A DNA stretch of 64,000 bases. Origin: a virus. Lineage: Duplodnaviria > Caudoviricetes. The notes under the pieces are model-generated. The model was not told the origin of the DNA and did not search any database. It saw only the letters and a list, made by a program, of their open reading frames with translations. The position numbers and the translations under genes were made by a program. The stretch spans positions 1 to 64,000 of the IMG/VR virus record IMGVR_UViG_3300038679_000021; one strand, written 5' to 3'. Below are positions 6,154 to 60,867 of this stretch, piece after piece (position 1 is the stretch's first letter; each line of letters begins with the position of its first letter).

Positions 6154-6173
6154 ATCTGCAATCGTGTGCAGAT
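6154..6173. repeat. Dispersed palindrome, variant copy (ATCTGCAATCGTGTGCAGAT)
   Basis: 14/16 match to CTGCAATCGATTGCAG at 6156-6171. Intergenic, about 30 bp upstream of the 6123 start. Confidence 0.8.
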
Positions 6174-6295
6174 TGGAATCTTTCCGTGGCTCCAATATAG
6201 CCTGCAAACTTGATGAAGTAAAGAATGGATTTTCCGGAAAAACTGATTTCTGAGGTTTCCAACATCTGAATCCGGACTGTTTCCAGACGGCTCAT

Positions 6296-6739
6296 TTACA
6301 TCCAAGCAAACCTTGCCAGCCCTACGTTCACGAAACCCTCAGAATAAGGAACGACGTACTTGAAGGAAAGCTTGCACGATATTCTGGAATCATTCACAAT
6401 CACTCCAGCTTTTTGCAGAGCATCTTGCACAGGTTTCTCTAAGTTGTCAACATCCGGGTTCGTGGTCTTCGGTTCGACCGCTTTCAGCTTTCCCTTTTCA
6501 TACTTCTTCATGTCCCCTTGCGTCATAGGGAACTCGAAACAGAAGACTAAGATCAACGGCCCGTCAAACGCAAAAGCTGGTTTGATTTTCTGAAACTCAG
6601 CCGTCAAGGCCGCTACGTATTCCCTTTCTTTGGGTGGAGTGTAGAAAGACATTCCCCCTCCCTTAACCGATTGCTTCGGAATAGGAAGAATGGGGATAGA
6701 GGCTTCCCACTCATAAGGAACCCAGATACGAGGGATCAT
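6296..6739 (-). CDS. rusA: RusA-family Holliday junction resolvase
   Basis: PDVDNLEKPVQDAL and IVNDSRI motifs; 147 aa. Confidence 0.88.
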   Translation of the reverse strand: MIPRIWVPYEWEASIPILPIPKQSVKGGGMSFYTPPKEREYVAALTAEFQKIKPAFAFDGPLILVFCFEFPMTQGDMKKYEKGKLKAVEPKTTNPDVDNLEKPVQDALQKAGVIVNDSRISCKLSFKYVVPYSEGFVNVGLARFAWM

Positions 6740-7686
6740 AGCGAAGCGAAGACCTCATCAATCCCTTCGGTGAAACAGATGGTCTTATACATACAAGCCT
6801 TTGCGCGTTTCGCTCCGTCGAAGGGGCAATCGGCACACCTAGCCGGAAGCACCTTCTTCTCGATACCATGCCAGATTGAGGCCGCTTTTTCAAGACCAAG
6901 ATCGATGAACCTCTGTTCTCCCTTGTAGATAAGCACTTGGATACCAAAGTACTTGCGGTCGATATAGACGAAGAGGGTTCGATCAACACCTTTCATCCTC
7001 TGATACCAAGTAGCTTGGCACTTGTAGCTATCATCAATAGCCTCAAGACCCTGATCCTTAATCTTCCGCAGAATACTATCATCAGTGGTCTTCAACTCCC
7101 AGAGGTCTAGCTTCTCGTCAGGCGCGAGTACACGCAGAACTGTCTCTCCCTTGATTGCGGCAAGGCATCGGGAAACAGAAATCATCCCATCCGAATGACC
7201 CCTGACCTTTGTGATGGGATCGTACAGTTCTTCCTCAATAAAGAACCATTTCCCATCAGAGGGGTAAAAGCCCTCTACGATCTCTCCTTTATTCAACTCG
7301 ATGTCGTTTCGCAACACCCAAGGAATCCAAGAACCATAGAGAATTCCCGCTGGGCCGAAGACTTCGTTCTGGAAAAACGCATGAAGGTAGCTGCCAACAT
7401 TCATGCGAAGTTGCATGGACATATTGTTGGGAACATATCTTGAATCGGGCAAAGGAAGGGAGTTCCGAAGAACAAACTCCCTAGCGCAAATCCTCCACAA
7501 TCCCGAGGCCCGGATTACTTCATCTTTCCGAAACTCTTCGATAGCTGTTCCGGCACATTTCTTGATGACGGCAGAAACGGCATCTGCCTCTTCATCAGTC
7601 TTGTGGTCCGCAGCAAACTTATCTACCAGCATCGTGGCGACAGAATCCGGCGCGAGAAGATCATCGTCTTTCATCCAGAACCTCAT
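6736..7686 (-). CDS. PD-(D/E)XK exonuclease, Cas4-like
   Basis: RASGLWRICAR, GHSDG, WELKT, YKCQATWY, and a C-terminal CADC...CMYKTIC Cys cluster. Confidence 0.8.
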   Translation of the reverse strand: MRFWMKDDDLLAPDSVATMLVDKFAADHKTDEEADAVSAVIKKCAGTAIEEFRKDEVIRASGLWRICAREFVLRNSLPLPDSRYVPNNMSMQLRMNVGSYLHAFFQNEVFGPAGILYGSWIPWVLRNDIELNKGEIVEGFYPSDGKWFFIEEELYDPITKVRGHSDGMISVSRCLAAIKGETVLRVLAPDEKLDLWELKTTDDSILRKIKDQGLEAIDDSYKCQATWYQRMKGVDRTLFVYIDRKYFGIQVLIYKGEQRFIDLGLEKAASIWHGIEKKVLPARCADCPFDGAKRAKACMYKTICFTEGIDEVFASL

Positions 7687-8014
7687 TCAAAGGGACTACA
7701 AGCCATTCTTTTGGGAAACCTTCCGAGGGAAGATGGAAGGTAACAATCATCGCAGGAATCTTACCTGCGGCATTCGCTTCTCCGACAATCTTCCGCAACT
7801 CCGTCCTCTTCAAGTAGAAGGACTCCCCTCCTGTTTCCTTCGACTCAATCAGGAGATTTCCAGCAACAATGTCTCCCTTGAACCCCGATAGGGCTCCGGA
7901 CATTGGTTGCCGCCTCCCTCCGACCTTCTTGGCAAGACGCTTCTCTGTCTCGTTCGCTTTGTCTTTGACAGATCGCTCCGCAAAAGGGTCGTATCTTACA
8001 TACGGTCTGCTCAA
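7661..8014 (-). CDS. Hjc-like PD-(D/E)XK Holliday junction resolvase
   Basis: E...GGRRQPMSGA...KGDI...LIESK motif; 117 aa. Confidence 0.75.
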   Translation of the reverse strand: MSRPYVRYDPFAERSVKDKANETEKRLAKKVGGRRQPMSGALSGFKGDIVAGNLLIESKETGGESFYLKRTELRKIVGEANAAGKIPAMIVTFHLPSEGFPKEWLVVPLNEVLDERR

Positions 8015-9156
8015 GTGAAAGACCTCTCGAAAATCTGCTTGATGAGATGCTTCAAGGCATACGGCTGCCGATGCAAGAACTCGATCATCTCATCATCAGT
8101 CCTTGTGGTAACGACTTCAGATTTGAGGACAGGCGTAACAGAAGAAGGATCGCCACCACCAGCCTTGACGATGTTTTTCTTCGCAGCCGTGGCGACAACA
8201 TCTTCGATCATCCTCCCCGTGGCAAACTCATGCCCGATAAGCCCAAGAGACTTTCCATGGCGGAAAGCGGGATAAGCGTTGTTCACTTGGCCCTTGGTGA
8301 GGAAACCAGAATCGCGCATTGCGAGGTCGAACTCGAAGTCAAGCCCTTGGCAATACGTCTTGTTCTTCTTCACCGAACCGCTGCAATGAGAGATAGCCAA
8401 GAGCTTGTTATCGTCCTCAACCGTCTTGCTAGGGCTCATTGCAATACGAATAGAGGGATAGAACATCTGGGCTTTCCCACCGGGAAGAGTGAGAGGGCTT
8501 CCGTAAAGGACTCCAATCTTCTCACGATTCTGATTCGTAAGGAAGAAGACAGGGGCACGATCTCCGAGCTTCGTGAGTTCCGGTTGCCACTTTCTGAAAG
8601 CCTGATTCATCAACCGGGCTTGGACGCCAACAGCGGCATCCCCAGCCGCACCTTCGAGTTCCTTCGAAGGAGTACAAGCTGCGATAGAATCGAGAACAAT
8701 GGCATCAAAGACATTCGCCGCAAGTGCTGCGGTGATTATGTCAATCGCTTCCTCACCAGTCTCCGGTCTCGCCAAACAGTGATGGGCGGGATCGAAGCCA
8801 AGACACTTTCCCCAGTCGGAATTGAATACGGATTCTTGGTCAACGTAGAGGGCACGGCACCGCTCAAGGGGCGAGTCGTCTGGGATAGGCAAACGAGTTT
8901 CGGCAGAGAGCCTTGCGATAGACGCACAGGCCATAGTGCAAAGAGACGTTTTCCCCGCCGCTTCAGGACCATGAACAAGCACAAATCGTCCCCAAGGGAA
9001 GCCACCACCTAGCGCGAGGTCGAGGCTGAAAACACCAGACGAAAAACGATGAACATGGATCGCCTTGGCGTCGTTCACAATCTCAATCTTGCCCTCACCC
9101 CACGCCTTCTTCGACTTACCCAAGAACGCCATAAGCTTGTCTGATCGCTCACTCAT
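8011..9156 (-). CDS. recA: RecA/UvsX recombinase
   Basis: SSGVFSLDLALGGG, Walker A GPEAAGKT, IVLDSIAA, QARLMNQA, TNQNREKIG...PGG. Confidence 0.95.
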   Translation of the reverse strand: MSERSDKLMAFLGKSKKAWGEGKIEIVNDAKAIHVHRFSSGVFSLDLALGGGFPWGRFVLVHGPEAAGKTSLCTMACASIARLSAETRLPIPDDSPLERCRALYVDQESVFNSDWGKCLGFDPAHHCLARPETGEEAIDIITAALAANVFDAIVLDSIAACTPSKELEGAAGDAAVGVQARLMNQAFRKWQPELTKLGDRAPVFFLTNQNREKIGVLYGSPLTLPGGKAQMFYPSIRIAMSPSKTVEDDNKLLAISHCSGSVKKNKTYCQGLDFEFDLAMRDSGFLTKGQVNNAYPAFRHGKSLGLIGHEFATGRMIEDVVATAAKKNIVKAGGGDPSSVTPVLKSEVVTTRTDDEMIEFLHRQPYALKHLIKQIFERSFT

Positions 9157-9173
9157 TTAGATTACTCCGAGGG

Positions 9174-9206
9174 GAAACTTAATTCCCACGCTTGTTTTCT
9201 TACAGG
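9174..9206. repeat. 33-bp direct repeat, copy 1 (flanks tRNA-like element)
   Basis: GAAACTTAATTCCCACGCTTGTTTTCTTACAGG; 29/33 identical to 9279-9311. Confidence 0.85.
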
Positions 9207-9273
9207 ATTCACCTACTGGAATCGAACCAGTGTTCCCCGCCGTCGCCGGGTCTTGCCACTAAATGAAGGTGAA
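9204..9273 (-). ncRNA. tRNA-like element / tRNA pseudogene with shortened anticodon arm
   Basis: Acceptor stem TTCACCT/AGGTGAA, D loop AGTGGC with GG, perfect T arm ACTGG-TTCGATT-CCAGT. The segment between D and T arms is 4-5 nt too short, has no canonical U33 loop, and the 3' end is TCCT rather than NCCA. Confidence 0.65.
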
Positions 9274-9278
9274 TCCTT

Positions 9279-9311
9279 GAAACTTAATCCCAACGTCTGT
9301 TTTCTTACAGG
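9279..9311. repeat. 33-bp direct repeat, copy 2 (overlaps stop codon of upstream gene)
   Basis: GAAACTTAATCCCAACGTCTGTTTTCTTACAGG. Confidence 0.85.
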
Positions 9312-10132
9312 GTATCAGACCGAATCCCTGCAACTTCGCGATTGAGGAATTCCGCAGCCTTCCCTCGGACGTATTGGAAAGCCTCATCAATCTCGCTGAT
9401 GTGGCAAGGAACGGAGACAAACACCGAAACCTTTGCGGAGTTGTAATCGCCTTGGTTGATGGTCTGCCCCATGTCGATACTCACATTCGCAGCAGGGCCG
9501 ATGAAAGCCGGAGTCTCGATAAACTCCACTTCGTCACCCTCAGAAAGGAGAATCTTCCCCTTGGAGAAAGTCTTGCGAACAAGAATCAGTCCCCTCTTGA
9601 GAAGTTCACGCTGCATTGCTTCCATCGCCGCCCGCGAAGCCGCCTCAACTACGGATTTGGCAAAGGGCCTTTCCGTTGGCGGAACTTCCACTCGCAGAAC
9701 AGAAGAATCAGAAGGAGCAACAGGCGCAGGGGCCGGGATTTCCACCGTCTTCTCTACGGGCTTCTCTACGGGCTTTTCGGCAACAGGCTCAGGGGCCTTT
9801 GCAGGAGCCTTGGGAGCTTCCACGGTCTTCACAGGAATGCTCACCGTCGGAATCGTGATCTTTTCCGCTGCGGGCTTTGCGGGAGGCGCAACAGGCGCGG
9901 GCGGCGGCGTTTCCGCCTTCGGGGCGGGGGCTGGTGCTTCCGCCACAGGCGCAGCGGGTTCGGCCTTGGCCGGAGCCGCTTCCGGTGCCTTGGCGTCAGC
10001 AACGGGAGCAGGACTTGCCGCAGCAGTAGCAGCAACAGGAGCAGCAGCCGGGGATCGACGGGCGCGTTCCTCTTCAACCCTCTTCTGAAGGTTTCGCATC
10101 ATCGATTCAAAATCAACTTTTGCATCAGCCAT
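9305..10132 (-). CDS. Hypothetical protein with long Ala/Pro-rich linker
   Basis: ATG at 10132 (MADAKVDF) with a GAGG RBS; globular-looking C-terminal ~100 aa. Confidence 0.8.
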   Translation of the reverse strand: MADAKVDFESMMRNLQKRVEEERARRSPAAAPVAATAAASPAPVADAKAPEAAPAKAEPAAPVAEAPAPAPKAETPPPAPVAPPAKPAAEKITIPTVSIPVKTVEAPKAPAKAPEPVAEKPVEKPVEKTVEIPAPAPVAPSDSSVLRVEVPPTERPFAKSVVEAASRAAMEAMQRELLKRGLILVRKTFSKGKILLSEGDEVEFIETPAFIGPAANVSIDMGQTINQGDYNSAKVSVFVSVPCHISEIDEAFQYVRGKAAEFLNREVAGIRSDTL

Positions 10133-10142
10133 GGTAGTACCC

Positions 10143-11519
10143 TCATTTGATGTTAAAACCAAGTCCCTTGATGGTTCTAACTCGTTTCTTCCACATTCCC
10201 AACAACAAACTATTCGGAACATCCAGAATGTCGAGGATAACAAGCGGCATCTTATCGCTATGCACCCTCTGAATCCTCCCTACCATTTGAGTCACTTCCC
10301 CTCTTGGGGTCGCCAGAATAAGCGTGTCGGCATCCGGAACATCGCTGCCTTCTGAGAACAGATGGAAGGTTCCGATGATAGCCTTACACTTCTTCGATTC
10401 ATCCAACTGAGGGCTTGTCATTCCCCCGATGTACTTCCCAACAGAAGCCATCCCTCCCCGAGAAAGTAGCGTATTCCGAACAGCATCGTAGAGGAAGTCT
10501 ACTTGCTCGATGCGATCCGTCATTACAATAACTTTTCTACCGGAATCAATCGCCCCAATGACCTTGGAGTGAATGAACATAGACCTCTTGGTGTCAGAAG
10601 CGATAAGGGAGATAGCCCCCGCAACATTCCCTCCAAACTTCTTCAAGTTGTCGTTTTTCCATCGCACAGCGTAGTAGTCCCCTGTCAACGTGTGCGTTTT
10701 CATCTGGGTAAGGATCGGCCCGACATGCCAGAATAACACTTGCTCCAACCCATCGCGCCGCTTGGGTGTAGCTGTTAATCCAATTCGAAGTGTAGCAGAA
10801 AACTTCTTGATTGTCTGCTCTAAAGTGTTGCAAGGCACATGATGTGCTTCGTCTACGATAATCAGCCCAAAATGCTTGAAGAAGTCCGTCCCAAGTTCCT
10901 CCCTTCTAGCGATGACAGTCTGATATAGCGCGAGAGTGATAGGATAGTCTCTCCAACGCTGGGTGTCCTGTCTAACCCAACCCACTTGGTCTTTCTTGAG
11001 ACCGAGAAACTGCCGGATACCATGGCCTTTGCCGTCAGTCTCGGCATGAGTCTTTCCTGCCCACTGATCCATGAGGTCGGATTTATGGAGAAGTACTAAA
11101 GTACGCAGCTTTAGTAGGGAGGCAAGATACAAAGCCATCGTTGTCTTCCCACCGCCGCAGTTGACGGTGAGGATTCCTCCGTACTTTTTCTTGGCGAGTT
11201 TTCCCAAGAAGTCCAGAACGATGTCGTATTGGGCTTGTCGAAGAGTTCCTTGGAAGTCAGGAAAATCTGGTGCAGACGGTATTTCCGTGCAATCGATTGC
11301 AGATGAACAGTCAAATTGCAACTTGTCGAGAGCCGCCATCTGTCGAGGGATTCCGACGAGATCGCCATGTTCTTCGAACAGTTTGACTTCCCGAACTTCC
11401 TTTGAAACTTCGTCCTCAACGTGCAGAGACAGCTTGAGAAGAAGCCTCTTCAGTTCCGAAGAAGGGGCAGACCCTCTCTTGAACCAAGCAAGCCTCCCTA
11501 TGGTTTGGATTTGGATCAT
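10143..11519 (-). CDS. Superfamily 2 DNA helicase (DEAH, XPB/UvsW-like)
   Basis: CGGGKT, IIVDEAHH, LTATPKRRDG, QMVGRIQR. Confidence 0.93.
   Translation of the reverse strand: MIQIQTIGRLAWFKRGSAPSSELKRLLLKLSLHVEDEVSKEVREVKLFEEHGDLVGIPRQMAALDKLQFDCSSAIDCTEIPSAPDFPDFQGTLRQAQYDIVLDFLGKLAKKKYGGILTVNCGGGKTTMALYLASLLKLRTLVLLHKSDLMDQWAGKTHAETDGKGHGIRQFLGLKKDQVGWVRQDTQRWRDYPITLALYQTVIARREELGTDFFKHFGLIIVDEAHHVPCNTLEQTIKKFSATLRIGLTATPKRRDGLEQVLFWHVGPILTQMKTHTLTGDYYAVRWKNDNLKKFGGNVAGAISLIASDTKRSMFIHSKVIGAIDSGRKVIVMTDRIEQVDFLYDAVRNTLLSRGGMASVGKYIGGMTSPQLDESKKCKAIIGTFHLFSEGSDVPDADTLILATPRGEVTQMVGRIQRVHSDKMPLVILDILDVPNSLLLGMWKKRVRTIKGLGFNIK
11287..11302. repeat. Dispersed palindrome copy (15/16), intragenic
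   Basis: GTGCAATCGATTGCAG inside the SF2 helicase gene. Confidence 0.8.
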
Positions 11520-11746
11520 TCAAACCACACAATCGTGTACTGGGAAACAATCAATCCGGCCATGGGGATTTCGTGGGAAACTTCCAGAACACCATTCCGG
11601 TACTTTCTGAATTGAGGTCTCTTGGTGTAATGCTCCACAAATTCTTCAGGGGAAGACCAGCCGCCCATAGGACTGATACTTTCGTGCATAAAGAAATGCC
11701 TCTTCGAGGGTCGGTGTACGCAGAAGCACTTTTGGAACATTCTCAT
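11516..11746 (-). CDS. Hypothetical protein
   Basis: 76-aa ORF overlapping both neighbours by 4 bp. Confidence 0.6.
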   Translation of the reverse strand: MRMFQKCFCVHRPSKRHFFMHESISPMGGWSSPEEFVEHYTKRPQFRKYRNGVLEVSHEIPMAGLIVSQYTIVWFE

Positions 11747-11907
11747 TTTTCGCCTTCCAGAATCTTTTCGGCTTGAAGACCGATACGGATAAGGAACTCC
11801 AACCTCTCAGAGAGATTCACATGCTTGCGCGAGACATCAGATAGTCTAGCAAGACGGATCTGGTCTAGCAACTCTTTATCGACAGAAATAGAGATTTTCG
11901 CTTTCAT
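11743..11907 (-). CDS. Small ribbon-helix-helix-like DNA-binding protein
   Basis: MKAKISISVDKELLDQI (alternating beta strand then helix) ...NLSERLEFLI. ATGA overlap with the polA stop. Confidence 0.6.
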   Translation of the reverse strand: MKAKISISVDKELLDQIRLARLSDVSRKHVNLSERLEFLIRIGLQAEKILEGEK

Positions 11908-13838
11908 GCCCACGCATCCTTTACCTTGCATTCTGCATCGATTGGAACGCGTAATGTAACTCGCGTTCTGAGGACATCTAATCCGATATCCCTCACAGTA
12001 TCTACGATGGACTCTGGAGCGTCGATATCAAACTCATCATGCATAAACTGAACAATCCCGCAGCCATGTTTATTGAAATACCTTCCGTCTGCCCACATTC
12101 CGGCTTCCCTGAGCCTTCGCTCTACCTCGGGGCAAGCGAGTTCCATGTACCCTACTTCGGAAGACTGCACCGGGAAGTTGATCGCTTGGTTCAGCGCATG
12201 CTTGAAACTCATAGCCATATCTTGAGGACGAATCCTTCGCCTCCGTCCGAAGATATCTTTAACTTCGCCTTTCGATTTCAAAACAGCTTCGATGTTTCGA
12301 TGATACATATCAACTCCACGATATGTAGCAAAGAAGCCATCAATGATGTTCTGCCACTGCTTGACAGAGTACTTAGGGTATTCGAAGTGCATCTTGTACG
12401 CCGTGGCTTTGAAGATCAGCGCAAAGTTGCAAGTCTTACCATCTTGTCTGGAATCAAGAACAGGAACACCAAGGAAGTTGTTCACTGTATCCATGGTCAT
12501 CTGATGGAGGTCTAGGCCATGCCAGAACCCTTTGAAGGTCGGGTCTTTCAGAGCCTTCTCATTTGCAGCAACCCCACAATGAGGACATGCGAGAAGAAGG
12601 ATATTCGACTCACCTGTCATGTTGCAAGCTGTGCATCGCCATGTCCTATACGCCTTCAGCATCATCGGATCAGATGAGATATGGGCGCACAATCGAAGCT
12701 GGAATTGAGAAACGTCAAACTTCATTAGCTTCCGACCGGGCTCTACCCTGAATCCTTTTCGGATTACCCAGCGGTCAAAGACCTTCTTTCCTTCCGGAGT
12801 CTTTACGTAGAAACGCGTCTCATTGGGTATCGTCTGATTCGGAGGATCGGTTTGACGAGTTCTTCCAGTAGCAGAGACAAGCCAAGTCGAGGCGTGGGTT
12901 CTACTATCAGGATCAGTGAGCGCAAATTTGGAAATCTTGAGGATATACTTTGAGAGCATATCCGCTGCATGGTTCATGTCGGAAATCTTCCGGCAAATGG
13001 GAAATCGTGGGGCCAGAACATCGATGGTTTTTGTGTCAACACTGAGCCTCTTCTTGCTCTTTGTCATTTCCACGCCATCAGCGGGAATCTTCAACGTCTC
13101 GAAAAGAAGAGTCGCCAGTTGATCCCCAGACTTCAAGTTGATCTTTACCAAGTCCCCCTTCTTACCGGGGATGAGCCCTTTCGGCCCTAGCTCCTTGAAA
13201 ATCTCTTCCTCTAACTCCGCTCTCTTCTCCGCGTAAGCCCTAGCAAGATCGATAGCTACTGAAGCATCCCAGCGGAACCCATAGAGTTCCATGTCTGCTA
13301 CGGTCTTCGTCATTGGTGAGAGAATCCGGAGAAGCAACTTCATCAGATTCTCTGCCTCAAGTCGAGGCTTCAGGACTTGCCACAAAGCGAAAGTTTGCCG
13401 CGCATCGTCCTTCGCGTACTCGCGAAAGAATACGGAGTCAACACCATGGACAATAGCCTCATCATACTCGATCATTTCGTGGCCTAGAACAGATTTGGCA
13501 AGCCTCTTCAGACCGAGATCATGGGGTGAGATATTCTCGTCCAACAGGTTCATTGCAATCATCGTATCGGTAGGTTGCAATGGATACCCTTCGAGCCCGA
13601 AAAACTTCTTGCTGCACTGAAGATCAAACTTAATGTTATGGCCTATAATCAAACCGGGGAAAGCCCAAATAGGCGTGATAACATCATGGAGATTGGTTGT
13701 CCAATACTCTGTGGCGTCTCCATTCGACATAGAGATACCAACGACTTTGAAATCTGGAAGCCAGTAATCAACGCCGTTGGTCTCTATGTCGAAGGAGACC
13801 TCTGAACGTCCTGTTAGGATTTCAGAGACGGTAGCCAT
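11904..13838 (-). CDS. polA: Family A DNA polymerase with 3'-5' exonuclease (no 5'-3' exo), atypical motifs A/B, Zn-finger insertion
   Basis: ExoI FDIET, ExoII GHNIKFD, ExoIII YAKDD, ATGR, motif A DVSQFQLR, motif B RQDGKTCNFALIF, motif C MHDEF. Confidence 0.93.
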   Translation of the reverse strand: MATVSEILTGRSEVSFDIETNGVDYWLPDFKVVGISMSNGDATEYWTTNLHDVITPIWAFPGLIIGHNIKFDLQCSKKFFGLEGYPLQPTDTMIAMNLLDENISPHDLGLKRLAKSVLGHEMIEYDEAIVHGVDSVFFREYAKDDARQTFALWQVLKPRLEAENLMKLLLRILSPMTKTVADMELYGFRWDASVAIDLARAYAEKRAELEEEIFKELGPKGLIPGKKGDLVKINLKSGDQLATLLFETLKIPADGVEMTKSKKRLSVDTKTIDVLAPRFPICRKISDMNHAADMLSKYILKISKFALTDPDSRTHASTWLVSATGRTRQTDPPNQTIPNETRFYVKTPEGKKVFDRWVIRKGFRVEPGRKLMKFDVSQFQLRLCAHISSDPMMLKAYRTWRCTACNMTGESNILLLACPHCGVAANEKALKDPTFKGFWHGLDLHQMTMDTVNNFLGVPVLDSRQDGKTCNFALIFKATAYKMHFEYPKYSVKQWQNIIDGFFATYRGVDMYHRNIEAVLKSKGEVKDIFGRRRRIRPQDMAMSFKHALNQAINFPVQSSEVGYMELACPEVERRLREAGMWADGRYFNKHGCGIVQFMHDEFDIDAPESIVDTVRDIGLDVLRTRVTLRVPIDAECKVKDAWA

Positions 13839-14518
13839 TAGAAGGGGAGATCGTCGTCTTCCTTACCAGCGACCGGCCCAGAAGTCGCGGCCATCGCCGC
13901 AAGAGACTTCATCTTGCTGATGTACTTCAGCACCAATTCGGGATTCGGTGCGAGAATGTCGGCGTAAGGATACACCTTAACATCCTCGAAATCCGTCTCC
14001 GGAACATGGCGAATGTACTCGAAGTCATCGCCAGTAGAAGGCGACTTGTCCGCCTTCGAACGGAAGATTCGGAACTCCGCAAGGAACAGAGACTTCCCAT
14101 CTTCCTTCAGCTTGGCAACACGCCGCGCCAGTTTCTCCCAAGCCCCGGCCTTGATGACGTAGAGCCGCTTGGAATCCTTGACCACGGTGCCCTTCTTATC
14201 CCCGCTCTTGAGCGTGAACTCCGAACGGTCGATAAGCGAGAAGGGAATCGCCTTGTACTTCTGGACTTTTCCTTCCAGAGCGCACAGAGGGCAATCGAGC
14301 CGCAAATGCGTCAAACACGTCGCATAGTTGCGGAAATCGTCGCCAATCTTCATCGCGTGTTCCCAATACGCCAACTCAGCGTCGGGGGACAGGAAAACCA
14401 CCGTCTTCTCAGAGCCCTTCGGCATCCAGAAACGGATGTTTCGGGTCGGATCGCGGACGAAAGCGGCTTCGTCCATCTTGATATCCGTACCAACTTCAAC
14501 TGTATCCATCCAGCCCAT
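13838..14518 (-). CDS. Single-stranded DNA-binding protein (gp32-like)
   Basis: ATCL..H...CPLC Zn site, acidic C-terminal EDDDLPF tail, position between primase and polA. Confidence 0.8.
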   Translation of the reverse strand: MGWMDTVEVGTDIKMDEAAFVRDPTRNIRFWMPKGSEKTVVFLSPDAELAYWEHAMKIGDDFRNYATCLTHLRLDCPLCALEGKVQKYKAIPFSLIDRSEFTLKSGDKKGTVVKDSKRLYVIKAGAWEKLARRVAKLKEDGKSLFLAEFRIFRSKADKSPSTGDDFEYIRHVPETDFEDVKVYPYADILAPNPELVLKYISKMKSLAAMAATSGPVAGKEDDDLPF

Positions 14519-14527
14519 AATGTGACC

Positions 14528-15508
14528 TCATGTGAACATTTCCAGAGATTTCAGCAATTCACCTTTGCTTATCTCTCCGGGGTCTTTCGTGCTGTAGTCC
14601 AAACTAAATACGAAAGGCACACCCTTCCGTAAATCTCTCATTGCGAACTCTTCTCCCTTTCTTCCAGCAGGATCGTTGTCGAGCATCAGAAAAACCGGCC
14701 TTGAAAAAGCACTCAGAAGAGGCAGTTGGTGTTCCTTTACCTTATTCCCGCTGATCGCCAAAGGAAAGAACTCACCAAGGAGGCCCTCTTCCTTCAAGAA
14801 GAAGTAGATACGAAGAAGATCGAAAGGCCCCTCAACAAGAAGAACCCGATGAATCTTCGCCATCTGGAAAGTCTTGTCGTACACAAAAGTCCGCGAAGCC
14901 AAGCTACCGTCATAATGTCGGACTTTCGGTTCTTCGTCCAGAATTGATCTTCCTTGAACTCCGAGGAATAGCTTCGGGGAATCGAAGCCGTACATGGGGA
15001 AGAGAAGCCTTCTCTGTACTGGATCGTACTTTAGGTCGAAGATTTCAACAGCTTCTTCAGGAACTTGCCTCTTGGAAAGATAGGTCATTCCCGGCGGCTG
15101 CATACAAAGGCCAGAGAACCAAATCTCCATTGGGGCTAGCTCTGCCGCTAGGGCCTCGACCTTAACCGTAAACTTAGCTTCTCCCGCCTTGCACGCATTT
15201 TCGATATCCTGAGTGCCTTCCTCAACTGTAAGAAGGTCTTTCAGCAGGTCTTCGTAAAGAGATTTCTTACCGTGAAGTATCGCGTAGAACGTGAAGACTT
15301 CATGGAAGTTCCCCCTCTCCCCACATACCCAGCAAGACCCAAAGCCTGTATCCTTAGAGATAGAGAAGCACCCCTTACCAGAAGAGAGCCAACCTTTGTG
15401 GTGGGTATGCTCCCTGAAGGGGCAAGTGCAACGAATAAAATCCGACGTTTCCGCAAAGATCGTAACGTCAGTCCGGTAAAGGAAGTTGAGGATAGAGTCC
15501 CGCGTCAT
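14528..15508 (-). CDS. DNA primase (Zn-binding + TOPRIM)
   Basis: CPFREH...CWVCG, VEGPFD, MLDNDPAG. Confidence 0.9.
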   Translation of the reverse strand: MTRDSILNFLYRTDVTIFAETSDFIRCTCPFREHTHHKGWLSSGKGCFSISKDTGFGSCWVCGERGNFHEVFTFYAILHGKKSLYEDLLKDLLTVEEGTQDIENACKAGEAKFTVKVEALAAELAPMEIWFSGLCMQPPGMTYLSKRQVPEEAVEIFDLKYDPVQRRLLFPMYGFDSPKLFLGVQGRSILDEEPKVRHYDGSLASRTFVYDKTFQMAKIHRVLLVEGPFDLLRIYFFLKEEGLLGEFFPLAISGNKVKEHQLPLLSAFSRPVFLMLDNDPAGRKGEEFAMRDLRKGVPFVFSLDYSTKDPGEISKGELLKSLEMFT

Positions 15509-15549
15509 GGTATGAGTCTATCAGATTAACATATGAAAGCAAGCTTAAA

Positions 15550-16860
15550 CTAGATCGAAACAGCAGCAAGATCGTCAAGAGAGACTTCAGATTTCGCAAT
15601 ATCCACGGAGGGGTCAACTTCCGAGTAGTCTCCGGTATCCTTGTTCCAGTTGATGTCGAACTCCCGAGGCTTTCCAGAACCATCGCGCACTTTGAGCATT
15701 GACCAATGCATCCTGTTGATAAGAGAAAGATCGGGAGGCTGAGAGAGACCTACAACAACATCAGGATCAATGATCCATTCCTTTGCGTAGCGAACATTCC
15801 ATCGATTGACTAACTTGGAATCCAATCCTTTCCCTGTCTCGCTGGAATCCCCCAACTGCACTGTAGCAACCCAAGGAATGTTGGAGTCCTCCGCGCAGAC
15901 TTGGAAATCCTGAACTAGCTTGCTCTGATCTCCCCACTCTCTCGAAGAAGCCAGCCTATAGCCGCCGTCCACAAGGACATCGGTTACTCCCAAGTCCTTT
16001 GCCATGAGGGAAATGTCTTGGACCGTTTTGACTTCTTTCTTCCCCACAAAGATGGCATCAGAAACATCCATGAGAGATTCTTCGTACATTGCCCGAATCC
16101 ACTTTTCCTCCATCTCAGGAGTGAGGCAACCATCTCGAAGATCGACGTAAGGTAGCTTGTATCTCAAACAGTCTAACCGCATCTGAAGCCTCTTAGGCTC
16201 CATTTCTGTCGAGACTACTAGGGGTCTTCGTTTCTGGCTCAGAAGGTCTTCGCAGAGAAGCATGAGCATCCATGACTTACCAACAGAAGTGAAGCCAGCG
16301 AATACGTAGAAGTATCCGTTGATGATACCTCTGGTCTCTCTATTGAAAGTCGGCCATCTAGTTACTGCCCCAAGGAAGCCCCCGCTATCCTTAACGGTCA
16401 TGTAGTAGAGAAGTCTCTCCGTGAAGGAGAGCCGATACGAAAGGACATCGGAGGCCCGCGTAGAGTATTTCCCACGAAGCTTGGCATTGAGGACGAGCCT
16501 ATCCAATGCTGCCGTAGGGTTTCCTGAAGCGATCAACTTGATGGAGTCGTTGATGCTTAACTTGATCTCTCTTGTTAGGGAGCGATCTTTGATAGATCGA
16601 AAGACTCCTTCGAGAGTAGCTCCATCAGGAATCTTAGGTGAGACTGAAAAACGAGATTCCAGTTCGAGGATCGATGGCTTTTCTCCCTTAGACTTCAGGA
16701 GAAGGCAATACTCGAAGGCTTCGCGCCCCTCTGGTGAGACAAGCATTTCAGGGAAGAACCCCATAGGCGGGAGCTTCCCAAAAGAGTCATCCCTAACGCA
16801 GAGTGCCAACAACAATGAGTCCAAGCCGTCAGCCATTTTCAAACTCCCCAGAAATGCCAT
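15550..16860 (-). CDS. dnaB: DnaB-like replicative helicase
   Basis: Walker A GFTSVGKS, STEM, LVDGGY, TVQL, KVRDG. Confidence 0.88.
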   Translation of the reverse strand: MAFLGSLKMADGLDSLLLALCVRDDSFGKLPPMGFFPEMLVSPEGREAFEYCLLLKSKGEKPSILELESRFSVSPKIPDGATLEGVFRSIKDRSLTREIKLSINDSIKLIASGNPTAALDRLVLNAKLRGKYSTRASDVLSYRLSFTERLLYYMTVKDSGGFLGAVTRWPTFNRETRGIINGYFYVFAGFTSVGKSWMLMLLCEDLLSQKRRPLVVSTEMEPKRLQMRLDCLRYKLPYVDLRDGCLTPEMEEKWIRAMYEESLMDVSDAIFVGKKEVKTVQDISLMAKDLGVTDVLVDGGYRLASSREWGDQSKLVQDFQVCAEDSNIPWVATVQLGDSSETGKGLDSKLVNRWNVRYAKEWIIDPDVVVGLSQPPDLSLINRMHWSMLKVRDGSGKPREFDINWNKDTGDYSEVDPSVDIAKSEVSLDDLAAVSI

Positions 16861-17413
16861 CCCTAGAGCTTTCGCGCAAATTCATCCCGTCGAATCGGAC
16901 AGGGAAAAGTACTTCGATCATCACAGCAAAGAGGGCAGGGAAGTTCTCCTTGATGAAAGTTGGCGACAGATTCGTCGTGATAATCGTGCTTTTCATCTCA
17001 GACGTTCTTCGCCGGAAGATCATTTCGAACTTCGAATCCGCAAACGAGTCCTTCTTAGCTATCGTGAAGTCGTCAATAACAAGGAGGTCAACAGTCATCA
17101 TACGCTCGATCATGGTCATATCGGCATCGAACGCTGTCTTATTAATGACGTATCCAGTGATGTCGTCTGCGTACACGAAGAGACCGGTACGTCCTCTATC
17201 TGCAATCGATTGCAGGAGAACTGCTCCGGCGGAACTTTTCCCTCTACCATAATCTCCCCAAAGTAAAAGCCCGACCCCTCTCTTCAGAAAGGCGTCCATG
17301 TTTGCGATGAACTTTTCCAGATACTTTCTCTGAGGATTTTGCACTACACCAATCGTGGTTCCCCACAGCCTCTTCGGGAGCCGCATCCTGTTGAGGTAAT
17401 CGGGATTCACCAC
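16829..17413 (-). CDS. DnaC/IstB-like helicase loader ATPase
   Basis: GDYGRGKS, LLVIDDF, TIITTNL. Confidence 0.88.
   Translation of the reverse strand: MVNPDYLNRMRLPKRLWGTTIGVVQNPQRKYLEKFIANMDAFLKRGVGLLLWGDYGRGKSSAGAVLLQSIADRGRTGLFVYADDITGYVINKTAFDADMTMIERMMTVDLLVIDDFTIAKKDSFADSKFEMIFRRRTSEMKSTIITTNLSPTFIKENFPALFAVMIEVLFPVRFDGMNLRESSRDGISGEFENG
17200..17215. repeat. Dispersed palindrome, exact copy, intragenic
   Basis: CTGCAATCGATTGCAG inside the DnaC-like gene. Confidence 0.9.
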
Positions 17414-17748: not shown

Positions 17749-17767
17749 AAGTCCTCCGTATGCTGAG

Positions 17768-17797: not shown

Positions 17798-17803
17798 GTC
17801 TAA

Positions 17804-19018: not shown

Positions 19019-19032
19019 GTTCGTACCTTTCG

Positions 19033-19596: not shown

Positions 19597-20309
19597 TATT
19601 TCTTCTCCCAGATGTGCATAAGCACCATAATCCAACCTACCCAACGCACTGCCTTGTAGTACGTTTTCGCATACTCGAACCCAACGGCCTCAAGATTGCG
19701 CTTGAACTCTTCGTCAAGCAAAGCCTTCACAGTCCATGGCGACATTCCGAAGAACTTCGAGAGGTAAACGATGTTCGCGTAGCCTTGGTCATGCTTCAAA
19801 GAAGACATCCACGTAATTGGCAATCCATCAGGGCCAAGAGGCCCATCGCTGATACCAGAAACGAAAGGCCCTAAAGCGTACTTGAAACTACAACCGTCCC
19901 ACTCAAAACCCGCCTTTGCTGTGAAAACCCCATCCTTGTAGTTAAGAAAAGGGAGGTCAAACTCCCCTAACTTAGTGAGCCCATCAACACCATACTTGGT
20001 GTCCTTCTGAAGCCTGAACTTCTCAAAGGAAGCATTCTTTGCGGAAAGAAGAAGCTTCTTATTTCTTTTCCAAGCGACTGAAGCTCGATAAACAGCGAGG
20101 ATAACTCCGCAAATAGCAAGGGTCCACGTTTCCGGCTGCTTTAGGCTGTCGTCGATAATTTTCGACCAAGACTCACTGCTATTAGCAAGCCCCACCATCC
20201 AAGCTGCAATGATTGCAGCTAGGTAACGCGCTGCGGCCAACAGGGAAGCGGAGATCGCAACTTTCAGAGCGGCAAAAAATTGATCGGAGGTTTCAGTTTT
20301 GTCGGTCAT
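19596..20309 (-). CDS. Membrane protein (holin-like N-terminus) with DUF1353-like C-terminal domain
   Basis: Two N-terminal hydrophobic segments; GFEWDGCS...SSLKHDQGY...ALLDEEF pattern. Confidence 0.6.
   Translation of the reverse strand: MTDKTETSDQFFAALKVAISASLLAAARYLAAIIAAWMVGLANSSESWSKIIDDSLKQPETWTLAICGVILAVYRASVAWKRNKKLLLSAKNASFEKFRLQKDTKYGVDGLTKLGEFDLPFLNYKDGVFTAKAGFEWDGCSFKYALGPFVSGISDGPLGPDGLPITWMSSLKHDQGYANIVYLSKFFGMSPWTVKALLDEEFKRNLEAVGFEYAKTYYKAVRWVGWIMVLMHIWEKK
20204..20218. repeat. Dispersed palindrome, 1-nt-deletion variant
   Basis: CTGCAATGATTGCAG inside the membrane-protein gene. Confidence 0.5.
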
Positions 20310-38861: not shown

Positions 38862-38883
38862 GTCTGTTTCCTTGAAAAGTTCC

Positions 38884-38899
38884 CTGCAATCGTGTGCAG
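38884..38899. repeat. Dispersed palindrome, variant copy, intergenic
   Basis: CTGCAATCGTGTGCAG; shares the 18-bp AAAAGTTCCCTGCAATCG (38875-38892) with 44304-44321. Confidence 0.85.
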
Positions 38900-44312: not shown

Positions 44313-44328
44313 CTGCAATCGATTGCAG
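44313..44328. repeat. Dispersed palindrome, exact copy, between promoter and portal ATG
   Basis: CTGCAATCGATTGCAG about 10 bp upstream of the portal start (operator-like position). Confidence 0.9.
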
Positions 44329-46663: not shown

Positions 46664-46935
46664 GAAGGAGTAGGTGGAAGAACGAGAGTAGACCTCGGAT
46701 AAAGAGTGGCTAAGTCATCAGACAAAGCACAAGGGAAAGCCCCATCGTGCCCCAACGCATGAAGGGCCAGCTTCACTGCCCTCATGCGTTTAGTCCACCC
46801 ACATTCACACTTGTCATTGAGCGTGATTTTCTCCCAATCGGGATGCTCGAAAGCAACGTTATCACACTCAAGACAGTTAGGCCATGAGACTAGGATCATA
46901 CAGAATCCTTCAGCTTCGATTTCAGGAACGTGCAA
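46660..46935 (-). CDS. Hypothetical Cys-rich protein
   Basis: 91 aa, CLEC...CECG; overlaps both neighbours. Confidence 0.55.
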   Translation of the reverse strand: MHVPEIEAEGFCMILVSWPNCLECDNVAFEHPDWEKITLNDKCECGWTKRMRAVKLALHALGHDGAFPCALSDDLATLYPRSTLVLPPTPS

Positions 46936-47684
46936 ATATCAACCTTCGTTGATCGAAGTTCGTTGACCATCTTCTCAGTCATGTCGAAGAGTTCACCATC
47001 CATGAGGACCATCAGATGCGTCTTCCCGCGATAGGCGAAGAACATGAAGTTTCCCGGAAGATCACCAGCGTAGTTCGAGAAGATGTTGTTCAGAACATCG
47101 GAGACCGAATCAATCGCCGTGAGTTCCTTGGAAGTTTCCTTCATTTCCTTGACCCACTTCTTGTCGTCTTCGGCGGAAGCGGGCTTCAAAAGATGCTTGG
47201 CATAGTCCCGGAAATCATCGAACCCCAAGAGCCCCGGCAAAGTTTCGTCCGAAAACCCCTTTTCCTTCAAGGAAGCAACAAGGGCGGTGAACTTGGAGTC
47301 GTCAAGTTCGCCACCAATGAGATTTCTCCGAACCGTCTTGAGTTTCTGCAACTCGATGGAGTCCCAGCTTTTGACGTAGCAAGGCACAGATGACATGCCA
47401 AGCACGCGGGCGGCGCGGAATCGGTGCGCCCCTCCAATGATGGTGTACGTCTGGGGTTCTCCATCGGCCACGGGATTTGGGACCACAAGAAGAGGGTCGT
47501 CAAAACCATCTTCCTTGATTTCGTTCACAAGGGCCGCGAAGTTGGCGTCTGTTTCGACGTTAGGGTTCCAGTTGTTCTCTACGAGTTGTCCCATAGAGAT
47601 CAACTCAGGGACATTGATCCTCACTCCGGTATCTTCCGCAGGGGCTTCTGGAGAATCCGCAACATCAATAACTTCGTCTTCCAT
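46896..47684 (-). CDS. ParB/Sulfiredoxin N-terminal-domain protein
   Basis: WNPN...GFDDPLLV...IIGGAHRFRAA; no clear C-terminal HTH. Confidence 0.88.
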   Translation of the reverse strand: MEDEVIDVADSPEAPAEDTGVRINVPELISMGQLVENNWNPNVETDANFAALVNEIKEDGFDDPLLVVPNPVADGEPQTYTIIGGAHRFRAARVLGMSSVPCYVKSWDSIELQKLKTVRRNLIGGELDDSKFTALVASLKEKGFSDETLPGLLGFDDFRDYAKHLLKPASAEDDKKWVKEMKETSKELTAIDSVSDVLNNIFSNYAGDLPGNFMFFAYRGKTHLMVLMDGELFDMTEKMVNELRSTKVDICTFLKSKLKDSV

Positions 47685-47691
47685 AAGTTCC

Positions 47692-51558: not shown

Positions 51559-51559
51559 T

Positions 51560-53415: not shown

Positions 53416-53416
53416 A

Positions 53417-55777: not shown

Positions 55778-55795
55778 AAGTCCTCCGTTTAGTAG

Positions 55796-55824
55796 ATAAT
55801 AGAGCAGAGACTTCGTGAAAGCAA
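55796..55824 (-). promoter_or_regulatory. Sigma70-type promoter heading the modification operon
   Basis: TTGCTT-N17-TATTAT, then ACGGAGGACTTATG (RBS context identical to that of the 17748 gene). Confidence 0.65.
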
Positions 55825-56520
55825 TCAGCGATACTTGGCTAGAACTGAATCTGGTAGTTTCTCGACAATGCTCTTCAAATAGCTGATTTGCTTGTCTGTG
55901 AGAGAAAACCGTCTGCGGTATTGCGTGGTCATGCTCTTGATAACTTCCTTCGCTTTGTCATTAAACAAATGCAAGTTATCATTAGCTATCGTGATGTACT
56001 TTGAAGCCAGAGACTTCCTCTCGTCAGCGGTATAAACAGGAGCGGGCCTTATTACACCATGGTGCGACTTCTCCGAAACAAGAGAATCAAAGACCCGTAC
56101 AAAGGCATCAGCCTGTTCCCGCGTAGGGGGAGACTTCGATGCGGTGACGCGATCTGCAATCGATTGCAGGAAGCTGACTCGTTCAGTCGGGGCACCCTCA
56201 AGTTTTCCGTGGAGGAAGCCGGAAAGCCTCCGCGTGAAAGCCGGGAAAGCTACTGAGAGGTTCTCAAGGAAAGTCTCGGGGTCAGAAGAGTAGACCTTAA
56301 ACTCAGTAGCGGGAAGGAACAGTGCCTCCCTAACCTTGACAGGGGCCGCAAGAATACATGCCGCGCAAAGGTGAATCTTCACTATCTCAAGATACCCAGA
56401 AGAGGTAAAAAGGACTGAGGAATTCGACCTAGCGCAGCTATCGCAAACTTTTGGGAGTGCGTTCTCGGAAGCAGCCCAACAAGGAATCAGGCTCAAAGCC
56501 TCAAAATCAGAGGAAGTCAT
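55825..56520 (-). CDS. Hypothetical protein with N-terminal Cys motifs
   Basis: 231 aa, CDSC...CAAC. Confidence 0.7.
   Translation of the reverse strand: MTSSDFEALSLIPCWAASENALPKVCDSCARSNSSVLFTSSGYLEIVKIHLCAACILAAPVKVREALFLPATEFKVYSSDPETFLENLSVAFPAFTRRLSGFLHGKLEGAPTERVSFLQSIADRVTASKSPPTREQADAFVRVFDSLVSEKSHHGVIRPAPVYTADERKSLASKYITIANDNLHLFNDKAKEVIKSMTTQYRRRFSLTDKQISYLKSIVEKLPDSVLAKYR
56154..56169. repeat. Dispersed palindrome, exact copy, intragenic
   Basis: CTGCAATCGATTGCAG. Confidence 0.9.
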
Positions 56521-56849: not shown

Positions 56850-56850
56850 A

Positions 56851-57213: not shown

Positions 57214-57214
57214 A

Positions 57215-58135: not shown

Positions 58136-58170
58136 AAGAAACCCTCCCCCGGAGTGCGCCGGGGGAGGGT
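58134..58170 (-). terminator. Intrinsic terminator-like hairpin
   Basis: 12-bp stem ACCCTCCCCCGG/CCGGGGGAGGGT followed by TTCTT on the minus strand. Confidence 0.7.
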
Positions 58171-58177
58171 AAGGGAA

Positions 58178-59179: not shown

Positions 59180-59193
59180 TTTTTCCTTTGTTT

Positions 59194-59222
59194 GGAGGGG
59201 CCGGAGTTTTTCCGGCCCCTCC
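59194..59222. other. Intergenic hairpin
   Basis: 12-bp stem GGAGGGGCCGGA/TCCGGCCCCTCC; no U-tract on the minus strand. Confidence 0.5.
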
Positions 59223-59231
59223 GTTGTTGTT

Positions 59232-59966
59232 TTATCCGACCGCCAACCGGGCCTTGATCTTCGGCCACATCTTCAGGATCACCGTCTCGGGAAGCTTCCA
59301 ATTCTTCCGTGCGAGGGAGAGGAACTTCTTCTGCGTATTCACCTTGGCTTTCTTCGCCGCAGCCGTGGCTTCCACGAACGAAGGGGGCTTGATTGCCACT
59401 GCCTTCTTGGCAGCAGCCTTCTTCTCCGTCCGAACAAGGTCTTCCCCGGCAATCGCGGCGTCGTAATCCGCCTGATCCACGCGGATCATCTTGGCAACCC
59501 AAGTGGTGACATTGTTGGCACCAGCAGCGGAATCCTTCCCGATATCAGAGATGAAATCAGGATGGACGAAGCAGCGGAGAACCGCCTCACTCGGTCCGGG
59601 ACGCGGAGGCCGAACCGCGAGGACATGGAATCCGTACTCACCGGGCGGAAGCTTTCCGCCAGTAAAGTTCGCGGCGGCGGGTTTCTTCGCGACCATGAGG
59701 CCGGGAACCCACTCGTCGTCGGCCATTGCGGAACGCAGGATCACCTTGCCGCCCTTCTTGATCCTCCGCAGCACCTTCCAGCCAGTAAGCCACTGTTGGC
59801 TTGCCATGACCGCTTCAGTGACAGGGGTGGGCTTATCCGCGCTCCCAACCGGGGCAGAGACAGCAGGAACGGGCACGCTTGCGGGAAGCGCGGGAGGCGG
59901 CGTTGCCGGAGCTTCAGGCAACTGGCTTCGGATTTCTCGCTTCGGAACAGGATTGCTAATGCACAT
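59232..59966 (-). CDS. Hypothetical protein (Pro/Ala-rich N-terminus, Lys/Ala-rich C-terminus)
   Basis: 244 aa, GC3-rich codons. Confidence 0.75.
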   Translation of the reverse strand: MCISNPVPKREIRSQLPEAPATPPPALPASVPVPAVSAPVGSADKPTPVTEAVMASQQWLTGWKVLRRIKKGGKVILRSAMADDEWVPGLMVAKKPAAANFTGGKLPPGEYGFHVLAVRPPRPGPSEAVLRCFVHPDFISDIGKDSAAGANNVTTWVAKMIRVDQADYDAAIAGEDLVRTEKKAAAKKAVAIKPPSFVEATAAAKKAKVNTQKKFLSLARKNWKLPETVILKMWPKIKARLAVG

Positions 59967-60246
59967 GGAATATACCTTTCTGGCAGATCGGACAAACTAC
60001 ATTTGCTTTGTTTGTTTTTCCCTCGATGAAGATTTCGACTGCGGACCAATCGGAAAAGTAGTCTTTTAGATCATTTTGAGACATCCTCCTGTTGCAGTGA
60101 CTACAGACGAGATACCAAGAACCGTCATCGGGAAGTTGGGTGTAACTCAAGAAAGAACGCATCGAAGAAGTGCGTCTATTCTTGTATTTGGGCGGGTGAA
60201 ACTCAGCTAGCGCACTAGGGGTCGGATCTTTCAAAATCAGTTCCAT
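59956..60246 (-). CDS. Hypothetical zinc-ribbon protein
   Basis: CSHC...CPIC; RBS and promoter upstream. Confidence 0.7.
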   Translation of the reverse strand: MELILKDPTPSALAEFHPPKYKNRRTSSMRSFLSYTQLPDDGSWYLVCSHCNRRMSQNDLKDYFSDWSAVEIFIEGKTNKANVVCPICQKGIFHVH

Positions 60247-60264
60247 AATTCATTCTCCGTGTGC

Positions 60265-60293
60265 AGTATAGGTTTTCTACTCCGTGAAGTAAA
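60265..60293 (-). promoter_or_regulatory. Sigma70-type promoter
   Basis: TTTACT-N17-TATACT. Confidence 0.7.
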
Positions 60294-60303
60294 GAGCAAA
60301 GTG

Positions 60304-60867
60304 TTATTTCTCACTCTTTCCTAGCCTCTTAATGGCCTCCAAGACTTCTGTATAAACCATCCCCGAAATCTCTTGAGCAAGATGTTTAGCGAGCATCGAC
60401 TTCGTATCGAAGACCCCATCACCAATGAGTTCATCTATTACGTCTTTCGGTACGCTCGTACCAGTACTTCCAAGAAGAAAGAATTTGGATTTGAAGGTAA
60501 CGTCACCAGACCCCTCGCGCTTAAACTCCAAGTCTACATGAGATACTTTTGGCAGTGATCCAGTGGATACTCCTTCGATATCAACACTAGGATAAGAGCT
60601 AACAGAATGCGTTAGCCTAACATTACGGGCATAGTAGTAGCGTAGCTCTGGAGACAGTAGGATGATATGGGCATTCTCCCCAACCTCTCCCTTATGCACT
60701 GTGCGGGTAAAGCCATCTGCAATCGTTGCAGGTAACTCTTCCGCAGATTTCTCCAACTTCTTCTTTGCGATTTCTCTCTTTATATCGTCAAGAAGAGTTC
60801 GAACCTCGGCAGGACCATCAACCGGATGCGTTCCAGCAAATAAAACATCGTCCATACTTACCCCCAT
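60304..60867 (-). CDS. Hypothetical protein
   Basis: 187-aa coupled ORF. Confidence 0.7.
   Translation of the reverse strand: MGVSMDDVLFAGTHPVDGPAEVRTLLDDIKREIAKKKLEKSAEELPATIADGFTRTVHKGEVGENAHIILLSPELRYYYARNVRLTHSVSSYPSVDIEGVSTGSLPKVSHVDLEFKREGSGDVTFKSKFFLLGSTGTSVPKDVIDELIGDGVFDTKSMLAKHLAQEISGMVYTEVLEAIKRLGKSEK
60717..60731. repeat. Dispersed palindrome, 1-nt-deletion variant
   Basis: (AT)CTGCAATCGTTGCAG, intragenic. Confidence 0.6.

Follow-up and report, generated by a model that had tools for sequence, protein, structure and literature searches.

The IMG/VR virus record IMGVR_UViG_3300038679_000021 holds 84,559 bp of a phage genome (G000 below), of which positions 1-64,000 form the window analysed here. 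Scattered through this window are copies of a 16-bp palindrome, CTGCAATCGATTGCAG, that lie within genes as well as between them. A preliminary description of the window had reported nine sites, all of them present where they had been placed; a mismatch-tolerant scan recovered those with a 2-nt centre. Exact copies occupy positions 17200-17215, inside a gene for a DnaC-like helicase loader; 23767-23782, near the 5' end of a gene encoding 633 amino acids (aa); 44313-44328, 9 nt 5' of the ATG of the portal gene; and 56154-56169, inside a 231-aa gene. A copy identical at 15 of 16 positions, GTGCAATCGATTGCAG (11287-11302), lies inside the gene of an SNF2/UvsW-like helicase, 217 nt from its start, and a TG variant, CTGCAATCGTGTGCAG, is found 33 nt 5' of the ATG of a gene for a 316-aa protein (6156-6171) and 22 nt 5' of another ATG (38884-38899). 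When the spacing between CTGCAA and TTGCAG was allowed to vary, two copies with a 3-nt centre were obtained: CTGCAATGATTGCAG (20204-20218), inside a 237-aa gene and possibly weak or decayed, and CTGCAATCGTTGCAG (60717-60731), 127 nt past the stop codon of a gene for a lambda-O-like replication initiator.

As the preliminary description had noted, the intragenic copies are translated in different frames, giving the peptide SAIDC in the helicase and 633-aa genes and LQSIA in the DnaC-like and 231-aa genes, and the sites at 38875 and 44304 share 18 identical bp. Its extension of the palindrome by ATC...GAT flanks does not hold in most cases: what is conserved is the 16-mer in G000 and a 14-mer core, TGCAAT-NN-ATTGCA, across relatives. 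Matches to sigma-70-like promoters lie 40-70 nt upstream of the copies at 38884 (about 40 nt) and 44313, and the portal copy does sit between its promoter-like match and the ATG. The G000 consensus is a perfect palindrome, and no copy is closer than 1.5 kb to another, the gaps in G000 and its lineage ranging from 1.5 to 20 kb.

The abundance of the word had been called far beyond chance, and two null models bear this out. Eight copies of the 16-mer (up to three mismatches) were observed against 0.27 expected and a maximum of two in 100 dinucleotide shuffles; with the 14-mer core (up to one mismatch), eight were observed against a mean of 0.72 and a maximum of three in 300 shuffles that kept every protein and the codon usage. 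An assembly or adapter artefact was ruled out, as open reading frames run through the copies. Four further copies lie beyond the window in the same record, at 64343, 73375 (a TG variant), 82948, and 84450. All three TG-variant copies of G000 are co-oriented with the genes and are the only copies there that are. At 82948-82985 and 84450-84500, in the early region, the palindrome is followed on the plus strand by ACCGTGCC, a separate oriented repeat, such that two repeat systems adjoin.

Occurrence of the Palindrome in Distantly Related Phages

The exact 16-mer is present in approximately 30 other IMG/VR contigs, several of which carry multiple copies. Fourteen of these (G001 onward) were fetched in full or nearly so for comparison; among the relatives, G003 and G012 are complete and G006 is near-complete, and contigs that lack the shared replication module described below are partial. 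The recurrence of the motif in related phages, proposed earlier as a check, was found: with limited mismatches, the core occurs 5-47 times in each of these 14 contigs, at 0.1-0.5 copies per kb, and a reversed, non-complemented control pattern gave zero copies. The G+C content of the motif-bearing contigs spans 38-61%. Scans of bacterial genomes and of metagenomes returned single or paired copies only, among the matches listed.

An all-against-all protein comparison revealed that ten genomes have in common a replication-recombination module, consisting of a DnaB-like helicase, a DnaG-like primase, a gp32-like zinc single-stranded DNA-binding protein (SSB), an SNF2/UvsW-like helicase, a RecA/UvsX-like recombinase, and a Cas4-like exonuclease, at only 25-30% identity; PolA, portal, and terminase are also common to some of them. 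Most of the motif-bearing contigs have nothing beyond this T4-like module in common with G000. Within G000, the module occupies 6736-17413 on the minus strand and comprises the Cas4-like exonuclease, a Holliday-junction resolvase, the RecA-like protein, the SNF2 helicase, PolA, the gp32-like SSB, the primase, the DnaB-like helicase, and the DnaC-like loader. No close cultured relative was identified: there was no nucleotide match among GenBank phages, and the terminase matches are distant, at 33% identity or less. Common descent of the sites was rejected as an explanation of their likeness: the identical word occurs in phages whose shared proteins have only 25-30% identity, and in different frames.

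The form of the word varies by lineage. The strict CTGCAATCGATTGCAG prevails in G000-G005; the centre is relaxed in G008-G012, where TG or CA is about as common as CG; an asymmetric form, TACAATCGATTGCA, characterizes G006, G007, and G014; and G003 and G013 have GGCAATTGATTGCA as an additional form. No protein family was found to be common to all motif contigs by BLAST clustering or by hidden Markov models. A MerR-like helix-turn-helix protein encoded 3' of the helicase gene was considered as a common family and rejected; it is present in seven genomes, and G000, G002, and G006 are not among them.

Constraint on Duplex DNA

Gaps between successive sites were compared with random placement in the 13 genomes having at least eight sites. 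Their coefficient of variation was 0.26-0.70, whereas approximately 0.95 would be expected, and in 11 of the 13 the difference had P ≤ 0.02, so the copies are more evenly spaced than random placement would give. Sites that touch non-coding DNA, which makes up a few percent of the genome, number 120 of 309 against about 25 expected, and such copies usually take up the space from one gene's stop codon to the ribosome-binding site that follows. True intragenic copies are found in conserved genes, including those for PolA, TerL, SNF2, RecA, the Cas4-like exonuclease, and DnaB. The preliminary description had also proposed a comparison of homologous genes in relatives. The copy in the SNF2 gene lies 209-218 nt from its start in G000, G008, G010, and G011, and 310 nt from it in G006; it is translated as AIDC or AIDF in G000, G008, and G011 and as QSIA in G010 and G006. 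A copy just 5' of the portal start is common to G000 and G010. Together, these comparisons indicate that the position of a site is kept and the reading frame is not. The constraint thus acts on double-stranded DNA and not on protein.

The layout of the word, two 6-bp half-sites flanking a tolerant 2-bp centre, is what a dimeric protein that binds duplex DNA would be predicted to read. A folded nucleic acid accounts less well for the sites. Extension of the palindrome beyond its core, in which the outer arms covary and a T-run sometimes follows, was seen only in G001 and G002 and in none of the other 13 genomes; the dominant variant of G006 and G014, in group C, has a hairpin energy of approximately 0 kcal/mol, and the core stem amounts to only -4.1 kcal/mol. 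Core changes across contigs are not compensatory, and a search of Rfam gave no match. A hairpin is therefore not the common denominator of the sites. The simplest account of their intergenic placement, and of their position at terminator tips in G001 and G002, is that a fixed 14- to 16-mer costs least there in a packed genome.

Nevertheless, a role as a hairpin or transcription signal, be it the tip of a terminator, an RNA-processing or stabilizing hairpin, or a phage-specific promoter, has some observations on its side. A third to a half of the copies in G001 and G002 tip long perfect hairpins, some of which are followed by T-runs; in G001, G002, G004, G008, G013, and G014, 35-80% of the copies follow a stop codon and precede a Shine-Dalgarno sequence and start codon by 5-45 nt; the half-site TACAAT of G006 and G014 is similar to a -10 box and points the same way as the genes; and the portal copy at 44313 is a match in a terminator-like scan. 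Given the hairpin data above and the lack of association with gene starts in G000 and G010-G012, such a signal appears improbable as the general function of the word. G001 (L186) and G002 (L192-L193) derive from one metagenome, and their hairpins have variable outer arms; the example at L186:12795-12835, at -20.5 kcal/mol, resembles an intrinsic terminator with the constant 16-mer at its apex.

An O-Like Initiator as the Candidate Reader

The preliminary description had proposed a network of binding sites for a dimeric protein. This is the best-supported reading, because of the palindromic half-sites and their tolerant 2-bp centre, the lack of a stable hairpin in one sublineage, the mixed frames, and the kept positions; the best candidate for the protein itself was absent from the list offered at the time. 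This candidate is the lambda-O-like replication-initiation protein of 287 aa encoded at 60858-61721 on the minus strand, which has an N-terminal winged-helix domain. A short paralogue of 105 aa, encoded at 61718-62035 on the same strand, comprises the O-like winged-helix domain alone. Both match PHROG 9773, "replication initiation O-like" (E values of 1.5e-29 and 3e-17, respectively); the G000 O-like protein also matches phrog_678, phrog_270, and phrog_428, and its O-like domain gives weak alignments to winged-helix domains in the PDB. The O-like family has 12,324 representatives, and among ten sampled no Pfam model was matched, except for DnaA_N in one. An HNH_3 endonuclease gene (62928-63533, minus strand) lies approximately 0.9 kb upstream of the O-like genes, with one to three paralogues in each of G009-G012.

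The connection between the word and such initiators comes from phages with a different arrangement of it. G015 is a 43-kb phage with terminal repeats in which the copies are confined to an array with a spacing of 22 bp, made up of two near-perfect copies, a weak one, and, as the fourth unit, a degenerate one. As with the origin iterons in the O gene of lambda, this array is inside a gene for a 439-aa protein with a C-terminal DnaA_N domain, and this array-bearing initiator is the sole protein common to G015 and the motif-rich genomes; its N-terminal domain matches the O-like protein of G000 (60858-61721; E of approximately 1e-6), that of G011 (1e-8), and that of G010. When the viral collection was scanned for pairs of core copies 2-30 bp apart, 14 more loci with tandem arrays were identified, having 2-4 copies at a period of 22-24 bp. 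At three of these (L374, L386, and L380), the arrays are inside genes that match PHROGs 678 and 270, "replication initiation O-like/protein", which are also matched by the G000 protein. In G015 and these three, four unrelated phages, the spacing is 22-23 bp. Outside the G000 lineage, the same word is thus associated with genes for O-like initiators. Tandem units of the same copy number and period also occur outside recognizable initiator genes, at L375:47-93, L376:5979-6015, L378:177-260, and L385:6001-6090; a portal gene lies close to one of these loci, and short contigs carry two of them.

Among the motif-rich relatives, G008, G011, and G012 have a gene homologous to the O-like gene of G000 directly 5' of the gene for DnaB. 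The gene at that position in G003 is non-homologous and has language-model features resembling those of HTH_36/Phage_rep_O, which we regard as a lead only; in G001, a gene for a weakly similar winged-helix protein abuts a double site.

Based on these sequence relationships, the palindrome would be a duplex recognition site for a dimeric phage protein, most likely the O-like initiator encoded at 60858-61721, a reading to which we assign a probability of about 0.5. In phages with the classical layout, 2-4 core copies lie 22-24 bp apart within the initiator gene and would form the origin. In G000 and its deep lineage, single copies are instead spread evenly along the whole chromosome, placed in short intergenic gaps where possible and otherwise in coding sequence in whichever frame fits. 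Each site would be bound by one initiator dimer, and the array might provide distributed docking points for the initiator, the DnaC-like loader, and the DnaB-like helicase, serving either multiple initiation or the re-loading of forks; alternatively, the network could titrate the initiator. The copies between a promoter and a start codon (those at the portal gene, 38884, and 6156) may double as operators or roadblocks. A bolder version is that a deep virulent lineage broke up its origin into single initiator-binding palindromes every 2-6 kb, where the DnaB-type helicase would be placed by the O-like initiator and the DnaC-like loader, and that the copies at gene starts couple late expression to occupancy by the initiator; this we hold to be doubtful. 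We know of no phage with many-origin or fork-reloading replication.

Several observations weigh against the O-like initiator. Its family was not detected by sequence search in the complete G003, the near-complete G006, or G002 and G005; the closest database homologues of the G000 protein are encoded on motif-free contigs; and when the G000 family and the array-bearing initiators were compared profile to profile, the pairs aligned only weakly. Tandem arrays are absent from G000, whose O-like genes are flanked only by degenerate copies, namely the 3-nt-centre copy at 60717 and a 14-mer with two mismatches at 62210. No AT-rich unwinding region was seen, the mean G+C content being flat for 1.5 kb to either side of 296 sites, and no change in GC or AT skew occurs at the sites; the absence of both an AT-rich flank and a skew change argues against each site being an origin. 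Furthermore, most sites adjoin gene starts in four lineages, and the asymmetric variants are oriented with the genes at ratios of 18:3 in G006 and 6:0 in G003, which may point to a further role, connected with transcription, in some lineages.

Alternative Readers

Of the proteins that had been suggested earlier as binders, neither the 62-aa "RHH" (ribbon-helix-helix) open reading frame nor the 316-aa protein encoded at 5173-6123 gained support, as neither has an informative family match; the same is true of a 76-aa open reading frame. The ParB-like protein on that list fared better. It is a 262-aa ParB/KorB/Noc-like protein with a Pfam ParB_N domain, encoded at 46896-47684 on the minus strand just upstream of the terminase genes, and its AlphaFold model (predicted local distance difference test score, pLDDT, of 70) has ParB-CDP, KorB, and Noc as best Foldseek matches over 130-240 columns. 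The sites would then be parS/OB-like loading sites for a CTPase clamp that loads, slides, and silences promoters or organizes and segregates DNA, by analogy with KorB and the 12 dispersed OB palindromes of RK2. ParB-family sites are palindromes of 13-16 bp that may be intragenic or promoter-proximal, and KorB sites are dispersed on RK2 (PMC11790492); a 16-mer with a 14-mer core falls within this range. Genes for ParB_N proteins are present in G000, G002, G004, G006, G007, G008, G010, and G011, usually adjoining terminase genes, and a weak ParB_N gene is found two genes from the array of G015. However, the G015 protein has no detectable relation to the ParB family of the group, a six-frame search (E ≤ 1) of G001 and of the complete motif-rich relatives G003 and G012 found no ParB_N, no partner of the ParA type was seen, and the tandem arrays of the three other phages are inside initiator genes and not beside parB genes. 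This protein is the main rival to the O-like initiator; its model bears out the suggested fold, two complete relatives lack it, and we consider it a possible, if rather unlikely, reader.

A host protein may also be the reader, and the absence of a protein family common to every motif contig would agree with this. Specifically, the phages could have copied the operator of a transcription factor of their host, either a LacI-family protein or some other global regulator, to tie their expression to host physiology. The word fits TGnnAnCGnTnnCA, which we take to be the canonical pattern of LacI-family operators, and in several bacterial phyla the exact 16-mer forms paired operators at promoters that adjoin LacI-family genes. 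The phages themselves encode no LacI-type helix-turn-helix (no PF00356 match at E ≤ 10 in G000-G005). LacI-type readers depend on a central CpG, but the central CG is not kept in G008-G012. Likewise, the variants are specific to lineages and the range of G+C contents suggests several hosts; even spacing and many deep intragenic copies would be odd for a metabolic operator; and the bacterial genomes themselves carry no more than the single or paired copies noted above among the matches listed. Such an origin of the word is therefore improbable. The bacterial pairs, with one 16-mer between the -35 and -10 elements and one at +1, are located at L102:7493-7531, L078:3024-3220, and L130:6077-6124, in a Hyphomicrobiales metagenome-assembled genome (MAG), a Paraburkholderia, and a Lentisphaeria MAG, with genes for LacI-family regulators adjoining.

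The preliminary description had also drawn an analogy to stoperators, whereby, as in mycobacteriophage L5 or with C1 of P1, an immunity repressor would silence a prophage through many operators. The density of the sites, their frequent placement at gene boundaries, and the orientation bias of the asymmetric variants resemble such a network. The analogy is weakened by the absence of integrases from complete relatives: neither a tyrosine nor a serine integrase (PF00589, PF00239) was found in G000, G003, G006, G008, G010, or G012, and the replication proteins are like those of virulent phages. Moreover, immunity specificities diversify quickly, whereas this site is palindromic and the identical word is kept across phages whose proteins are 25-30% identical. 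A repressor network of this kind is accordingly very improbable.

Relation to Known Systems

Repeats bound by initiators are familiar from textbooks, where they form clusters confined to an origin. The sites described here share with the iterons of lambda-type O proteins a dyad read by a winged-helix initiator, as suggested by the arrays within the O-like genes of G015, L374, L386, and L380, and G000 encodes an O-like protein beside a DnaC-like/DnaB-type replication system. They differ in that the copies of the G000 lineage are single, genome-wide, and inside unrelated genes, with neither a tandem array nor an AT-rich element. With KorB-OB of RK2, ParB-parS, and Noc and its binding sites they have in common scattered palindromes of 13-16 bp, some near promoters and some intragenic, and in those systems a dimeric reader affects both transcription and DNA organization (PMC11790492); G000 does encode a ParB/KorB-like protein. 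The phage sites are, however, more numerous (up to 47) and regular, no ParA or KorA partner was seen, and the gene is missing from two complete relatives.

Mycobacteriophage stoperators and the C1 operators of P1 also amount to tens of copies of one short site, often at gene boundaries. Such sites are asymmetric, are found in temperate phages, and are restricted to a single immunity group, whereas the present sites are palindromic and extend across very distant phages without integrases; only G006 and G014 have an asymmetric, oriented form as the dominant one. LacI-family operators have the same sequence pattern and serve the promoters of a regulon, whereas this word is genome-wide, occurs in phages without a LacI-type protein, and has no fixed CG centre in relatives. 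As with HIP1, the highly iterated palindrome, the repeat is a DNA-level palindrome in coding and non-coding sequence; it is distinguished by its length (14-16 bp versus 8 bp), its sparser (0.1-0.5 per kb) and even distribution, and the availability of a concrete candidate reader.

No description of this word, or of evenly dispersed origin-type iterons in phage genomes, was found among the papers searched, and a search with the exact string returned only an unrelated short hairpin RNA oligonucleotide. Iterons, parS/OB sites, and stoperators are already known; an evenly dispersed origin-type word in phages would be a new variation on them. The maintenance of tens of evenly placed single copies through essential genes, in phages whose proteins are approximately 25-30% identical, points to ancient and strong selection, in virulent phages, for a network of protein-DNA contacts across the genome. 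Should the reader be the initiator, this would represent an undescribed organization of phage replication or a coupling of replication to transcription; should it be a ParB/KorB-like clamp, long-range control of the KorB type would extend to lytic phages. In either case, a precise pairing has been gained, of one 16-mer with two or three candidate proteins, and the motif can serve as a sequence tag that identifies an uncultured group of phages in metagenomes.

Other Features of the Phage Group

The gp32-like SSB of G000 (226 aa; 13838-14518, minus strand), encoded between the primase and PolA, is kept in the ten module-carrying genomes; its His-Cys-Cys-Cys zinc motif is invariant, and its C terminus is an acidic tip, DDDLPF, that recalls the tail of E. 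coli SSB. Two Holliday-junction resolvases, a RusA-type and an Hjc-like enzyme, are encoded in the window at 6296-6739 and 7661-8014, respectively, on the minus strand. Their presence together with the RecA-like, SNF2, and Cas4-like genes suggests recombination-dependent replication in the style of T4. The terminase-family open reading frame of G001 (L188-L189, 69545-74887) encodes 1780 aa, compared to 560-700 aa in relatives, and an AAA ATPase of G006 (L331:5318-7858) contains an intein splicing domain with an HNH domain; inteins appear to be common in this phage group.

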